A DNA stretch of 64,000 bases, taken from Chitinophagaceae bacterium (GTDB taxonomy: Bacteria; Bacteroidota; Bacteroidia; Chitinophagales; Chitinophagaceae). Each line of letters starts with the position of its first letter. The first letter of the stretch is position 1. The stretch is taken from the NCBI GenBank assembly GCA_031422725.1, contig JANPMI010000223.1, forward strand, positions 973 through 64,972. The letters are read 5' to 3'. Positions 25,924 to 29,042 of the stretch are shown piece after piece. A program made the position numbers and the translations under genes. The notes under the pieces are model-generated. The model did no database searches, was not told where the DNA came from, and worked only from the letters and a program-made list of their open reading frames with translations.

Positions 25924-26313
25924 TTAAAAACCGATTTCCTCCACCGGGTCCCAAAACAGTTCTTTAAAATCAACCACCTGGTCGTTCTTTACTTTAATAC
26001 CTTCTTTCTTTAATAATTTTTCCATATTGCCGGGAGGTGAGAAATGATGCTTGCCGGATAAGATGCCGAGGCGGTTTACTACACGGTGTGCAGGTACTTT
26101 TGGTTTTATTCTTCCTGCTCCATTCATAGCCCAGCCCACCATACGGGCAGATGATTTGGTACCAAGACAGGCAGCAATAGCACCATAAGAAGTAACCCTT
26201 CCTTTTGGTATTTGCCGGGCTACTTGAAACACCAGCTCGAAGAAATTTTCGTCTCTTTTGCCGGAAGGTTTTACTGCCTTTAGCTTTTCTGATGATTTTT
26301 TTGAGACAGGCAT
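25924..26313 (-). CDS. MGMT-family DNA-binding protein lacking the catalytic cysteine (alkyltransferase-like, ATL)
   Basis: VTSYGAIAACLG...RMVGWAMN...VPAHRVVN: the canonical PCHRV site reads PAHRV here. Confidence 0.75.
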   Translation of the reverse strand: MPVSKKSSEKLKAVKPSGKRDENFFELVFQVARQIPKGRVTSYGAIAACLGTKSSARMVGWAMNGAGRIKPKVPAHRVVNRLGILSGKHHFSPPGNMEKLLKKEGIKVKNDQVVDFKELFWDPVEEIGF

Positions 26314-26328
26314 GCTATGAAGATAAAT

Positions 26329-26517
26329 CTATTTCTGATTTCCCTTTTCCTGTAAGAGAATAGATTTTTTTGGCTCAGGAACACTTTCATACTTATAAGG
26401 GCAATGTTTGCAGCCATTACCACAGCAGAACCCTTTATCAAGATGGTATTGTTCTGTCAGAACAATATACCCATCTTCATTGATGTAATAATGTATGCCC
26501 TCAGTCAGTTCCTTCAT
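26329..26517 (-). CDS. small cysteine-rich protein (DUF5522-like)
   Basis: 62 aa with GFCCGNGCKHCPY. It overlaps the trmB stop by 17 nt, which suggests translational coupling. Confidence 0.55.
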   Translation of the reverse strand: MKELTEGIHYYINEDGYIVLTEQYHLDKGFCCGNGCKHCPYKYESVPEPKKSILLQEKGNQK

Positions 26518-27211
26518 GCCCCTTTAATATTTGTTTTAGTTCGTCGTCTTTTTCTTTGCCTCGTAAATTTTCCGGCAAAGAGAAACAGAGATAGTGGATG
26601 CGGTTACTTCCGGCAATGTCTAATGATTCGTAATGTGTTTTAATTTTCAATTCTTCCCCAATTCCTTCTTCTTTATATACATCACCCAGATCCTTATGCA
26701 AAGTGCAGCCATATAATTCAATAACTAATTTGGTGAAAAGGTACAGATCCGGGCTGTCTGTTTTCAGATGTATTAAACCACCGGGGACGAGAAATTGTTT
26801 ATAAATGCGTAAAAATCCCGGATGAGTCAATCTTTTTTTTGCTTTTGACCTCCGCAGTTGTGGGTCAGGGAAAGTGATCCAGATTCCGGCTATTTCATCT
26901 TTTGCAAAATATTCGCCGGCCCTATCAATTTGTGTCCGCAGAAAAAAGACATTAGAAAGATTTTCCTGCAATGCTTTTTTGGCACCTGCCCAGATGCGGT
27001 TGCCCTTCAGGTCAACCCCAATTAAATTGGTATGAGGATATAACCGGGCAAGCCCAACAGCATATTCACCTTTGCCACAAGCCAGTTCAAGGGTAATGGG
27101 ATTTTCATTGTTGAAAAACTTCTTCCATTTTCCGGCGGTATCTTTTGGAAATTGCAGCACATTAGAAAATGTATTTAACTCTTCAAACCGGATTAATTTT
27201 TTTTGCCCCAT
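26501..27211 (-). CDS. trmB: tRNA (guanine46-N7)-methyltransferase
   Basis: LELACGKGEY (SAM-binding), FPDPQLRRSKAKKRL, LKTDS. Confidence 0.9.
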   Translation of the reverse strand: MGQKKLIRFEELNTFSNVLQFPKDTAGKWKKFFNNENPITLELACGKGEYAVGLARLYPHTNLIGVDLKGNRIWAGAKKALQENLSNVFFLRTQIDRAGEYFAKDEIAGIWITFPDPQLRRSKAKKRLTHPGFLRIYKQFLVPGGLIHLKTDSPDLYLFTKLVIELYGCTLHKDLGDVYKEEGIGEELKIKTHYESLDIAGSNRIHYLCFSLPENLRGKEKDDELKQILKGHEGTD

Positions 27212-27284: not shown

Positions 27285-28169
27285 TTAATATTTTTTATCG
27301 CTGATAAACTTTTTAACTGCAGGCGATAGCTTCAGTGAGTAGTTCTTGTTTATATTAATGATGGTAAGTTTTTCCAGCCTGGTAATACTCTCAGGCAGGG
27401 TAGTAAGTTTATTTGATTCAAGATATAATTCTGCCAGTTTACCAAGATTGCCGATACTTTCAGGAAGCGACAAGAGTTGGTTTTCGTTTAAATCAAGTAC
27501 AATAAGACTGGTAAGTCTGGTAACACAGTTTGGTAATGTTGTAAAACGGTTATAAGGAAGTGCAAGATATTTAAGATTGACAAGACTACTGATACTTTCA
27601 GGAAGTGAAGTCAGCAGGTTTCCGCCCAACCCGATCTCAGTAAGATTGTTGAGTTTAGAAATACTCTCAGGGATAAAGGAGAGCAGGTTTCCATATAAAT
27701 ATATTTCTGTGAGATTAGCAAGCTTGTCTATAAAATCCGGAACTGTTGTAAGCTTATTGTTGTTAAGATAGAGTTGCTTAAGGTTTATCAATTTTGTAAT
27801 GGTGCCAGGAAGAAAAGAAATGTTATTACTGCTTACATCTAATTCTGTAAGGGTAACCAGTTTGGCTACAATTTCCTCGATCGTATTGAGCCTGTTATTA
27901 CTCAGATTAAGTTCTGTGAGATTCTTTAACTGTGTAAGGCTTTCAGGTATAGAAGTAAGTTTGTTTCCGGCCAGGTCAAGCGTTGTAAGATTGGTAAGCA
28001 GCATAATCTTTTCCGGAACTTCAGTAAGCTTTTTATTATTTAACGACAGGATAAAGACGTCTGATGGATTCTTTAGTGCTTCATCTAAGGAGGAATATAC
28101 TTTGTCTTTTTGTGCATTACTCAGCAACCCCAAAAAGATTAATACAAAGGCGATGGTTATTTTTTTCAT
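27285..28169 (-). CDS. secreted leucine-rich repeat (LRR) protein
   Basis: Signal peptide followed by about 11 tandem 23-aa LRRs (LxxLxxLxLxxNxLxxLPESI). Confidence 0.85.
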   Translation of the reverse strand: MKKITIAFVLIFLGLLSNAQKDKVYSSLDEALKNPSDVFILSLNNKKLTEVPEKIMLLTNLTTLDLAGNKLTSIPESLTQLKNLTELNLSNNRLNTIEEIVAKLVTLTELDVSSNNISFLPGTITKLINLKQLYLNNNKLTTVPDFIDKLANLTEIYLYGNLLSFIPESISKLNNLTEIGLGGNLLTSLPESISSLVNLKYLALPYNRFTTLPNCVTRLTSLIVLDLNENQLLSLPESIGNLGKLAELYLESNKLTTLPESITRLEKLTIININKNYSLKLSPAVKKFISDKKY

Positions 28170-28211
28170 GGGATGAATGTCGGCATTTTTTGGTTTACTA
28201 TTTACCCGGAA

Positions 28212-28244
28212 TAAAAAAGCCTCCGTAAAAACGAAGGCTTTTTA
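28212..28244 (-). terminator. intrinsic terminator of the upstream ncRNA
   Basis: Minus strand reads aaaaaGCCUUCG-uuuuua-CGGAGGCuuuuuu: a 7-bp stem with one G:U, followed by a U-run. Confidence 0.7.
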
Positions 28245-28246
28245 AA

Positions 28247-28430
28247 TGCTGTAGGGGAAGGGATCGAACCTTCACGGGGCAGTTAGCTGTAGCACAAAGT
28301 TCGGTGGTCGACCCCGGTCGTCTCAACATTTCTGCTGGGACGGCTCTATGCTACGTTTATCCTGTTTTCCCCACCCCCGAGACAAGAGGGCATGTCTGCC
28401 ATGCTTTCGCAATTTCATCACCCCACAGTG
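28247..28430 (-). ncRNA. compact tRNA-like / tmRNA-like structured RNA (family unassigned)
   Basis: Minus strand. The 5' GUGGGG (28426-28421) pairs with CCCUAC (28256-28251), including a G:U as the third pair. Canonical T arm GAAGG-UUCGAUC-CCUUC (28273-28257). GNRA hairpin UGC-GAAA-GCA. Helix GGCAG (28400-28396) / CUGCC (28282-28278) sits at the anticodon-stem position and encloses 113 nt. Flanked by a promoter match and a terminator. Confidence 0.6.
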
Positions 28431-28461
28431 TGTGTCTTGTTATTTTAAGAACTTGATAGAA

Positions 28462-28493
28462 CAAATATAGGCTGTTAGAACAATTGATTCCAA
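28462..28493 (-). promoter_or_regulatory. candidate promoter of the ncRNA
   Basis: Minus strand TTG (28493-28491), 21-nt spacer, TATATTTG (28469-28462), matching TAnnTTTG. It lies about 35 nt upstream of the paired 5' end. Confidence 0.4.
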
Positions 28494-28577
28494 AATTTCT
28501 AATAAATATTTTGAAATTATAGAAATTATTCAAATATTTGATAATTATTATAAAAAAATTCTAAAAACGACTCTTAA

Positions 28578-29042
28578 ATGACTGCTAAATTAAATTTTGA
28601 TAAACTGGACCTCCAGATTATTCATAACATGATGGAGAATGCTGAAGTTTCTTATGCCGATCTTGGAAAGAAATTGTTTGTATCCGGCGGTACTATTCAT
28701 GTCCGTATAAAAAAACTACAGGAGGCCGGAGTTGTTAAAGGCACAAGGCTGAAGGCAGACCTGAAACAACTTGGCTATGATGTAATTGCTTTTATTGGTA
28801 TTTATTTAAAAGAAAGTTCTTTGTACGATGCCGTGGCTAAGGACCTGCAAAAAATACCGGAGATTGTGAGACTGAATTATACTACAGGTAACTATAGCAT
28901 GTTCGCCGAGATTGTCTGTAAGGACATAACACAGTTAAGATTTGTACTTCACGACCAGTTACAAAAGATAAAAGGCATTGAACGAACAGAAACGTTTATT
29001 TCGCTGGAAGAAAGTTTTAGCCGTAATGTGAAAGTGATGTAG
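28578..29042 (+). CDS. Lrp/AsnC family transcriptional regulator
   Basis: N-terminal HTH LDLQIIHNMMENAEVSYADLGKKLFVSGGTIHVRIKKL plus a C-terminal RAM-like domain. Confidence 0.85.
   Translation: MTAKLNFDKLDLQIIHNMMENAEVSYADLGKKLFVSGGTIHVRIKKLQEAGVVKGTRLKADLKQLGYDVIAFIGIYLKESSLYDAVAKDLQKIPEIVRLNYTTGNYSMFAEIVCKDITQLRFVLHDQLQKIKGIERTETFISLEESFSRNVKVM

Follow-up and report, generated by a model that had tools for sequence, protein, structure and literature searches.

A giant-armed tRNA-like RNA with an aspartate-type recognition set, encoded beside an AsnC-type regulator in Bacteroidota and also present in phages

Transfer RNAs that take part in decoding need a uridine at position 33 and a purine at position 37 of the anticodon loop. 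The identity of aspartate acceptors is defined by the strong determinants G73, G34, U35, C36 and C38, with a minor contribution of G2-C71 (PMC9976931), and the pair U1-A72 confers amidation of Asp-tRNA-Asn by bacterial GatCAB, a reaction that is blocked in tRNA-Asp by G1-C72 and U20a (PMC1635274, PMC9976931). The role of GatCAB has been called unclear in bacteria that contain both AsnRS and GlnRS (PMC4206432); in Chitinophaga pinensis and Niastella koreensis, gatCAB, asnS, glnS and asnB are present and asnA is absent (PMC4206432 Table S1). Here we describe an RNA gene on the minus strand of a 64,000-nucleotide stretch of contig JANPMI010000223.1 from a Chitinophagaceae bacterium (the window, whose positions are used throughout), which extends from position 28427 (U1) to 28248 (C74, preceded by G73 at 28249) and lies next to the gene of an AsnC-type regulator. 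This RNA of about 180 nt is conserved, covarying and structured, it forms a complete class II cloverleaf with a body resembling tRNA-Leu, and its recognition nucleotides are chimeric in that they combine the aspartate set with the first pair U1-A72 typical of tRNA-Asn and tRNA-Gln. We know of no tRNA that joins an Asp anticodon to U1-A72.

More than 300 homologues were collected from chromosomes of Bacteroidota and from uncultivated phages. Many Chitinophagaceae proteins match the regulator at 84-97% identity and, in the orthologous intergenic regions of regulator-encoding contigs and of 80 species-level genomes, the RNA is present in unchanged orientation; it lies upstream of this gene in essentially all of the 80 Chitinophagaceae loci whose sequence extends far enough. 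This set was gathered by synteny and not by a pattern in the anticodon loop. A 23-nt pattern taken from the most conserved part of the RNA identified 56 viral contigs in IMG/VR, with full-length homologues in 52; a second pattern that left the anticodon loop free retrieved additional variants, and a third, consisting only of a motif of the variable arm and the T loop, matched more than 120 viral contigs. Among the matches listed, 89 phage members of this last scan were parsed, and a pattern scan of metagenomes added at least 120 loci; the counts given below for the 89 phage members and for the metagenome loci hold among the matches listed. The anticodon loop was partly fixed in two of the search patterns, and the acceptor end was included in none. 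The sole match of a blastn search against GenBank phages was one unannotated uncultured phage of 636 kb.

From an alignment of 78 sequences and a structure derived by hand, we built a covariance model (R1), to which the window copy fits with a score of 192.5 bits. In a ranking with this model, family members score at 72 bits or more and are followed by ordinary tRNA-Leu genes at 40-51 bits. The alignment used for most counts (A4) comprises 105 members, 104 of them distinct, and was fitted to R1, which favours the modelled structure; its covariations are equally visible in an alignment made with MAFFT (A2). Standard pairs occupy 97.1% of the cells of A4 and 34 of the 47 modelled pairs have changed on both sides, values that were reached by none of 500 shuffles, and pairing falls to 45-55% if the partner is slid by one to three columns. 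The window RNA also folds better than its shuffles (z = -2.9), which alone is little proof. A preliminary description of the window had proposed a structured RNA of about 180 nt at this place on the minus strand, either as a miniature or second tmRNA or as a new class of tRNA-derived RNA. The conservation and the compensatory changes in the intergenic regions of relatives bear out the existence of the RNA, and its nature as a covarying derivative of a class II tRNA that matches no family in Rfam 15 supports the second option. Rfam 15 finds no match at gathering score in the window and, at E-values up to 10, only chance matches to terminators in the region 28150-28550, and ARAGORN calls neither a tRNA nor a tmRNA anywhere in the 64 kb. 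On about 100 loci, ARAGORN calls nothing on the RNA; no Rfam family covers it in 10 other loci, and in 11 sources there is no match to RF00005 on it. With no description found in literature searches either, the family is apparently undescribed.

The cloverleaf starts with an acceptor stem of 7 bp that adjoins the T stem and runs from U1-A72 to G7-C66. In the window, its 5' strand UGUGGGG (positions 1-7, 28421..28427, minus) pairs with CCCUACA (positions 66-72, 28250..28256, minus), to which G73 and C74 are attached. The pairs U1-A72 and G2-C71 are found in 104/104 members of A4, and pairs 3-7 covary. The helix GUGGGG/CCCUAC had been recognized before and its covariation across homologues substantiates it, with a change in register: what was taken for a G:U at 3:70, followed by an unpaired A73 as in alanine acceptors, is a G:U at 4:69 of a seven-pair stem, and the base behind the stem is G73 in all members. 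In A4, pair 4:69 is G:U in 57 members, A-U in 40, U-A in 4, G-C in 2 and C-G in 1, so that the wobble pair is replaced in 47/104, and just one of the 89 phage members retains it while 88 carry another pair. With G73 and without a conserved G3:U70, the RNA thus does not show the alanine identity formerly assigned to it. The T arm GAAGG-UUCGAUC-CCUUC (28257..28273, minus) is preceded by G47 and U48 (28275-28274) and agrees with the arm proposed earlier; all cells of its 5-bp stem are paired in A4, three of the five pairs have changed on both sides, and the T loop UUCRANY as well as U48, the partner of A15, are invariant.

The connector nucleotides U8 and G9 lead into a D arm of the tRNA-Leu type (28392..28420 including the connector, minus), with a stem of 3 bp (AUG/CAU, 28418-28416 with 28394-28392 on the minus strand) and a loop that contains A14, A15 and G18 G19 (28400-28399, minus). 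Covariation of the D stem is seen among the phage members (GUG/CAC in 31, AUG/CAU in 25, ACG/CGU in 10 and GCG/CGC in 3), and the string of the D arm is found identically in ordinary phage tRNA-Leu genes. A competing hairpin, GGCA-GACA-UGCC, was rejected since the D stem covaries instead, and its C-G becomes C.A in many independent lineages in which position 26 is G or A. The GNRA hairpin that had been assigned to the D-arm position does exist, as an insertion within the D loop (UGCGAAAGCA, 28411-28402, minus); it is, however, specific to certain lineages and not a constitutive element of the arm: most relatives lack it, and in others it reaches 60 nt. Such insertions, found at the same site in L014, L025, L030, L046, L099 and L128, are capped by GNRA loops (GAAA, GUAA, GCAA), and the CUAA/AUAAA loop of the variable arm bears a loose resemblance to a tetraloop receptor.

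Position 26 is a purine (G26, 28391) and is followed by an anticodon arm (28374..28391 with G26 included, minus) with a 5-bp stem, CCCUC/GGGGG in the window, and the 7-nt loop UUGUCUC (28385-28379, minus), in which G34 U35 C36 correspond to 28383-28381 and C38 to 28379. Its stem varies between CCCUC/GRGGG, CCCCC/GGGGG, CCUUC/GAAGG, CCUCC/GGAGG and CCCAC/GUGGG, and a single nucleotide, U44, links it to the extra arm. This arrangement replaces the previous one, in which GGCAG and CUGCC were paired as an anticodon stem around a 113-nt insert: GGCAG spans the D loop and the D stem, where it represents the invariant G18 G19 C A G; CUGCC provides the extra arm with its 3' strand and, because it belongs to a covarying extra-arm helix, the expansion is located in the variable arm (28372-28276) and not in the anticodon loop, whose arm is normal (28390-28374). 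All helices of the class II cloverleaf covary, and U8, A14, R15-Y48 and G18 G19 are invariant or nearly so. The same fold emerges from ARAGORN once the RNA is trimmed: after removal of the D-loop hairpin and reduction of the extra arm to 4 bp plus a tetraloop, the window sequence is called tRNA-Asp(gtc) and drawn exactly as the modelled cloverleaf. Upon trimming of the family, 132/193 sequences are called, all as tRNA-Asp(gtc), compared to 0/193 in their native form.

The variable arm of the RNA ranges from 36 to 154 nt across the family and measures 97 nt in the window (28276..28372, minus). A core is shared by every member and consists of a 4-bp helix (P4a, 28372-28369 with 28279-28276), a 4-nt bulge (28368-28365), a 3-bp helix (P4b, 28364-28362 with 28282-28280) and a conserved internal loop whose two strands, RAUAAAY and RGCUAAC, include four invariant A's (in the window GAUAAAC, 28361-28355, opposite AGCUAA, 28288-28283; all on the minus strand). 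The shortest natural arms of 36-39 nt are this core alone, with P4, bulge and conserved loop. Most members additionally contain helix P5 (28354-28344 with 28299-28289), an optional variable hairpin P6 (28342-28319) and a short helix P7 that closes the loop motif GGGUYGACCAC (GGUCGACCA together with P7, 28316-28302), again all on the minus strand. Each of P4, P5, P6 and P7 includes pairs that have changed on both sides, and the extra-arm strand CUGCCCC covaries with GGGG-(4-nt bulge)-CAG, as illustrated by the variants GAGG/CCUC, GGAG/CUCC, UAG/CUA and CGG/CCG. Two other elements that had been read into this region do not hold up. The pseudoknot between UUGUCUCGG and UUGAGACGA has one partner in the hypervariable hairpin, and the short frame encoding GENRINVA is disrupted in relatives by 1-nt deletions and by insertions of 32 and 58 nt in the arm bulge; changes in its codons follow compensated helix positions, and short forms of the RNA do not contain the region of the frame.

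The GAC in the loop of P7 (28307..28309, minus) is the complement of the anticodon-loop triplet GUC. As both triplets are invariant, covariation is uninformative on whether they pair; the GAC motif is missing in about 13% of the members. A fourth pair that would extend such a loop-loop contact, between position 37 and the base 5' of GAC, was rejected (U.U 79, U.C 14, U-A 5, A-U 2, C-G 1). Two further observations concern the arm. The pairs 87-117 and 88-135 (numbering of the window RNA; 28346-28345 with 28316 and 28298) both covary, with G-C in 44 and A-U in 28 cases for the first and A-U in 43 and U-A in 21 cases for the second, and yet cross each other, which suggests a tertiary contact at the junction, alternative conformations or shared ancestry. 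The last triplet of RAUAAAY (28357-28355, AAC in the window) is AAC or AAU, which are Asn codons, in most members, GAC or GAU, which are Asp codons, in one phage clade, and AAG in about 10%; this codon-like appearance may be a coincidence.

In A4, U1-A72, G2-C71, G73, C74, G34, U35, C36 and C38 are each found in 104/104 members. The acceptor end U1-A72, G2-C71, G73 and C74 is present in 90 of the 94 parsed metagenome members, and in the scan with the arm motif and the T loop G73 and C74 occur in 89/89, U1-A72 and G2-C71 in 88/89, the triplet GUC in 85/89, with the other four looking like mis-parses, and C38 in 80/89. These nucleotides encompass all five strong determinants of aspartate. Conversely, the hallmarks of an elongator tRNA are not maintained. 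Position 33 is U in 80 members of A4, C in 21, A in 2 and G in 1, and U in 47, C in 37, A in 3 and G in 2 of the 89 phage members; position 37 is U in about 95% of the family (in A4, U in 100 members, A in 3 and C in 1), and position 32 is variable as well. The arm is far above the approximately 21 nt of ordinary extra arms and tRNA finders remain silent. Taken together, this pattern fits recognition by AspRS and possibly by GatCAB instead of decoding on the ribosome.

The AsnC-type regulator gene (28578..29042, plus) is divergent from the RNA gene, and its start codon is located 150 nt from U1. An AsnC-like gene in the same divergent arrangement is found in 80 of the 94 evaluable metagenome loci, starting 130-652 nt upstream of the RNA (median 146) and encoding proteins that are 37-95% identical to that of the window, and the other neighbours differ from locus to locus (SufBCD; a 2-oxoacid dehydrogenase together with a T9SS-tailed protein; a CLC channel; an ammonium transporter). 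The window regulator finds its best PDB match in E. coli AsnC (2cg4, E = 1.5e-33, with the next match at 72 bits), to which it is 42% identical without gaps, and scores 163 bits with the NCBIfam AsnC equivalog, with the next model at 62 bits. For a set composed of this protein and six divergent ones, the equivalog scores 117-172 bits, compared to at most 83 bits for other models of the Lrp family. In E. coli K-12, a gap of 151 bp separates asnC from asnA, and the two genes diverge. Because the pairing with the AsnC-type gene mirrors this arrangement, the RNA gene holds the place of asparagine synthetase A.

We favour, with confidence that stands midway between doubt and conviction, a reading in which the family constitutes a non-decoding tRNA-like RNA that would carry aspartate and be linked to the metabolism of asparagine. 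In the corresponding scheme, the AsnC-type regulator would likely control transcription from the shared intergenic region, and the precursor would likely be cut by RNase P at U1, trimmed at its 3' end and completed with CCA, as expected for the tRNA genes that neighbour the RNA in phages. AspRS would then read G73 and the loop with GUC and C38 and attach aspartate, a step whose occurrence we judge to be evenly balanced. The RNA probably does not decode, given its very large extra arm and an anticodon loop in which neither U33 nor a purine at position 37 is conserved. In view of U1-A72, GatCAB could accept the aspartylated RNA, and it is possible, if doubtful, that the RNA would in this way serve outside translation as a carrier that forms or reports asparagine. 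A link of charging to asparagine metabolism and not to translation is suggested by the location of the RNA beside an AsnC-type regulator and its presence in many phages.

In its most specific form, which we regard as more tentative still, this proposal envisages a route to asparagine that depends on RNA and runs apart from translation, with the RNA as its dedicated cofactor: a discriminating AspRS would load it by way of GUC and G73, GatCAB would amidate the aspartate through U1-A72, and the AsnC-type regulator would adjust its level to the asparagine supply. The giant arm with its GAC loop would in this case recruit enzymes or mask the anticodon. If true, such a pathway would explain why Chitinophagaceae and other bacteria retain GatCAB despite containing AsnRS and GlnRS, and why phages carry the RNA, namely as a metabolic device or one that responds to the state of charging.

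Several points weigh against an aspartate-charged RNA that is linked to asparagine. Its first pair is U1-A72 and not the G1-C72 that is conserved in bacterial tRNA-Asp and that positions the acceptor end in E. coli AspRS (PMC9976931), and C38 is replaced by A or U in a few phage members. The long class II D loop (G18 G19 C A G A), which at times includes a hairpin, is of concern as a supernumerary U20a hinders GatCAB; the extra bases of the RNA are A and G and not U. The combination of G73 and a long extra arm is a serine signature as well (PMC9976931). On the metabolic side, the regulators score below the curated NCBIfam cutoff of 227 for AsnC, the presence of asnB in Chitinophaga and Niastella would make a second route to asparagine unnecessary (PMC4206432), and some Bacteroidota such as Flavobacterium and Bacteroides lack GatCAB (PMC4206432), which bears on the hosts of RNA-bearing phages. 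Finally, no genes for AsnA, AsnB, AspRS or GatB were found near the RNA in 2.87 Mb of loci, where the negative for GatB is a weak one, and none of the 25 Pfam families listed for the rest of the window is related to asparagine.

One alternative is an RNA that is never charged and acts as decoy or regulator. As a mimic of tRNA-Asp it would bind a protein that reads the GUC loop and the acceptor end, such as AspRS, an enzyme that modifies tRNA, or a toxin or anticodon nuclease belonging to a defence system; or else its arm, by means of the GAC loop or of the RAY triplet in the internal loop, would trap a cellular tRNA by its anticodon in a manner resembling the specifier of a T-box. The wide occurrence in phages, including those of 40-90 kb without other tRNA genes, is in line with such a function, and so are the altered positions 33 and 37, the invariant GAC that is complementary to GUC and an internal-loop triplet that is mostly AAC/AAU or GAC/GAU. 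We nevertheless consider a decoy unlikely: it accounts neither for the invariant G73-C74 acceptor end and U1-A72 nor for the conserved association of the RNA with an AsnC-type regulator in the genomes of cells; about 13% of the members do without the GAC motif, and the base adjoining GAC does not covary with position 37.

Even less probable, in our view, is a working decoder, a giant-armed isoacceptor of tRNA-Asp that would read GAY codons and that in its phage version might resist anticodon nucleases of the host. Such an isoacceptor would be expected to have the full cloverleaf with all nucleotides of the tertiary pairs (U8, A14, A15-U48, G18 G19, UUCRA) and the GUC anticodon, to reside inside tRNA arrays and, when trimmed, to be called tRNA-Asp by ARAGORN, all of which is observed. 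It would not be expected to carry U at position 33 in only about 50-77% of its members, a pyrimidine at position 37 in about 95% and U1-A72 in place of the G1-C72 of bacterial tRNA-Asp, nor to coexist with canonical tRNA-Asp genes on the same contigs (L134, L137, L144, L160, L238), and it is not apparent why a housekeeping decoder should be coupled to a regulator of the AsnC type.

We assign a similarly low likelihood to a serine acceptor, which SerRS would charge in analogy to tRNA-Sec and allo-tRNAs and whose seryl-RNA would feed a non-ribosomal or tRNA-dependent conversion. Since a long variable arm and G73 define serine identity, whereas leucine requires A73 and can be switched to serine by the change from A73 to G73 (PMC9976931), serine is the competing identity for this tRNA-Leu-like body and leucine is unlikely; the invariant G2-C71 would also suit a serine acceptor. 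SerRS, however, ignores the anticodon, which would leave the invariant G34 U35 C36 unexplained, the type to which the D arm and the pair A15-U48 belong is that of leucine and not of serine, and the G1-C72 conserved in bacterial tRNA-Ser is missing. A miniature or second tmRNA, charged with alanine, bound by SmpB and encoding the tag GENRINVA, for which the acceptor-stem G:U and an 8-codon frame ending with UAG in the window copy had spoken, is refuted by the unconserved G:U at 4:69, the G discriminator, the full anticodon arm, a frame that is broken by indels in relatives and whose variable codons follow the covariation of helices, the lack of any tmRNA signal in ARAGORN or Rfam and the coexistence with canonical tmRNA in phage contigs.

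Upstream of the RNA gene, a Bacteroidota-type -7 promoter box (TATATTTG, TAnnTTTG, 28462..28469, minus) can be read directly in the sequence, and a U-tailed hairpin resembling an intrinsic terminator (AAAAAGCCUUCG-UUUUUA-CGGAGGCUUUUUU, 28211..28243, minus) is located 3' of the RNA, both as previously noted. The box is conserved 10-40 nt 5' of the RNA start in 77 intergenic regions and presumably acts as its promoter, which implies a leader of about 28 nt that would be removed at U1. The terminator hairpin is matched only by the terminator portions of unrelated Rfam models, and relatives contain different hairpins at that place. Between the RNA promoter and the regulator gene, an AT-rich block (CAAATATTTGAAnAATTTCTATAnTTTCAAAATA..., 28488..28543, strand unassigned) is conserved in alignment A1 and in the alignment of intergenic regions and is a candidate for the operator, where the regulator would bind, and for the promoter of the regulator gene. 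Directly 5' of the RNA, position -2 (28429) is A in 99/104 members, copies in phage tRNA arrays included, and position -1 (28428), which could pair with G73, is C or U in 92/104; these positions may influence the site of RNase P cleavage, as in tRNA-His precursors. The RNA gene is flanked by the gene of a leucine-rich-repeat (LRR) protein (27285-28169) and that of the Lrp/AsnC-family regulator, as the preliminary description had stated. The gene directly 3' of the RNA differs between loci and encodes either an LRR protein or a DUF3078 protein. Two to three genes downstream of the RNA, the window contains genes for TrmB, a tRNA m7G46 methyltransferase (26501-27211, minus), and for an MGMT-like protein (25924-26313, minus), an arrangement that recurs in L004, L006, L007 and L008. 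Tandem second copies of the RNA gene are common (two copies each in L068, L080, L086, L057, L049, L069, L186, L189 and L247), and in Niastella the copy nearest to the regulator is a short form of 125 nt without P5-P7 and the GAC motif.

In phages, copies of the RNA are embedded in tRNA arrays at distances of 5-12 nt from the flanking tRNAs, sometimes beside genes for tmRNA and GOLLD RNA, and the neighbouring phage tRNA genes likewise end with N73-C-A/U. Other copies stand alone between the replication and packaging modules of phages of 40-90 kb. Among 57 phage loci, no protein neighbour is conserved in more than 11, and those found belong to the ordinary gene content of phages, PD-(D/E)XK nucleases and portal proteins among them. 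Canonical tmRNA, identified by ARAGORN and Rfam, and the RNA occur together on at least 10 phage contigs. Phage-encoded canonical tmRNAs are located at L099:1341-1732, L106:3393-3776, L108:2331-2708, L113:11193-11570, L128:9574-9957, L137:7002-7414 and elsewhere, and several of them have unusually long predicted tags, for example DVELSTMTFEDAMAFVGADYAVAA. In L106, a GOLLD RNA (RF02032, 271 bits, 962-1384, minus) is located by a tRNA-Leu (855-941) and the RNA (669-844) in a cluster that also holds several tRNAs and the phage tmRNA. The phage contigs contain other tRNA-like sequences of 120-145 nt, which combine class II D arms and T arms with different long insertions: L111:7212-7355 (minus), L154:34-155 (plus), L100:9978-10117 (minus), L100:4586-4711 (minus), L139:3165-3300 (plus), L131:1730-1868 (plus), L093:13154-13281 (minus) and L134:9073-9198 (minus). 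They score 24-42 bits with R1, two reach the gathering score of the Rfam tRNA model, and they appear to represent additional families of expanded tRNA-like RNAs that have escaped annotation. A gene called tRNA-SeC(tca) by ARAGORN (L141:5575-5661, plus) resembles tRNA-Leu (39 bits with R1) and may be an opal suppressor of the Leu type and not a selenocysteine tRNA.

Provided that the family proves to be what it seems, it would be a widespread addition to the short list of tRNA-like RNAs that function outside ordinary decoding. It makes testable the role of GatCAB in bacteria that already contain AsnRS and GlnRS, the targets of AsnC-type regulators in bacteria without asnA, and the reason for which phages carry tRNA-like genes that are invisible to tRNA finders. 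The conserved recognition nucleotides allow concrete and cheap tests of charging, amidation and regulator binding. Standard annotation pipelines miss these genes entirely, and they would be annotated with the help of a covariance model of the kind of R1.

Among described RNAs of tRNA origin, allo-tRNAs, the tRNA-Other of B. cereus and YrlA, a bacterial RNA of the Y-RNA type that contains a tRNA-like module, share with the family a derivation from tRNA and an altered architecture or a role outside standard decoding (PMC5389517, PMC3399842, PMC4201824). As far as their descriptions go, none of them has a 100-nt arm or a link to AsnC; by the same descriptions, allo-tRNAs are set apart by acceptor and T stems of 8/4 or 9/3 pairs, and YrlA by the lack of an acceptor end, the RNA described here being found outside an rsr/rtcB neighbourhood. 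The stable RNA species 1 and 2 of phage T4 (rnaC and rnaD, 119-139 nt) have their genes within a phage tRNA cluster, immediately next to those of tRNAs, and rnaC ends in a hairpin like a T arm and a 3' end like an acceptor; homology was not detected, as R1 assigns 7.5 bits to rnaC (with filters off) compared to 32 bits for T4 tRNA-Leu. With tmRNA, the family shares the tRNA-like module of acceptor and T arm, a size exceeding that of tRNA, the occurrence in phage RNA gene clusters and a probable maturation by RNase P, and it differs in its full D and anticodon arms and in lacking G3:U70, A73, a conserved tag frame and a match to the tmRNA model. Its relation to tRNA-Asp and tRNA-Asn in the AspRS/GatCAB transamidation pathway lies in the complete set of strong determinants for aspartate, in G2-C71 and in U1-A72, the determinant for GatCAB, here placed in a class II body with a long D loop that is apparently not built for decoding. 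The closest structural relative is the class II tRNA-Leu of bacteria and phages, with which the RNA shares the 7-bp acceptor stem, the 5-bp T stem, UUCRANY, U8, the 3-bp D stem with a mismatch at 13:22, the D loop AA..GG.AGA, A15-U48, R26, the 5-bp anticodon stem with its 7-nt loop and an extra arm between the anticodon and T arms. Unlike tRNA-Leu, it escapes ARAGORN and Rfam RF00005 in its native form, contains G73 instead of A73, a GUC loop without conserved U33 and purine-37 and the first pair U1-A72, and has expanded an extra arm of about 13-21 nt into one of 36-154 nt with conserved internal motifs.

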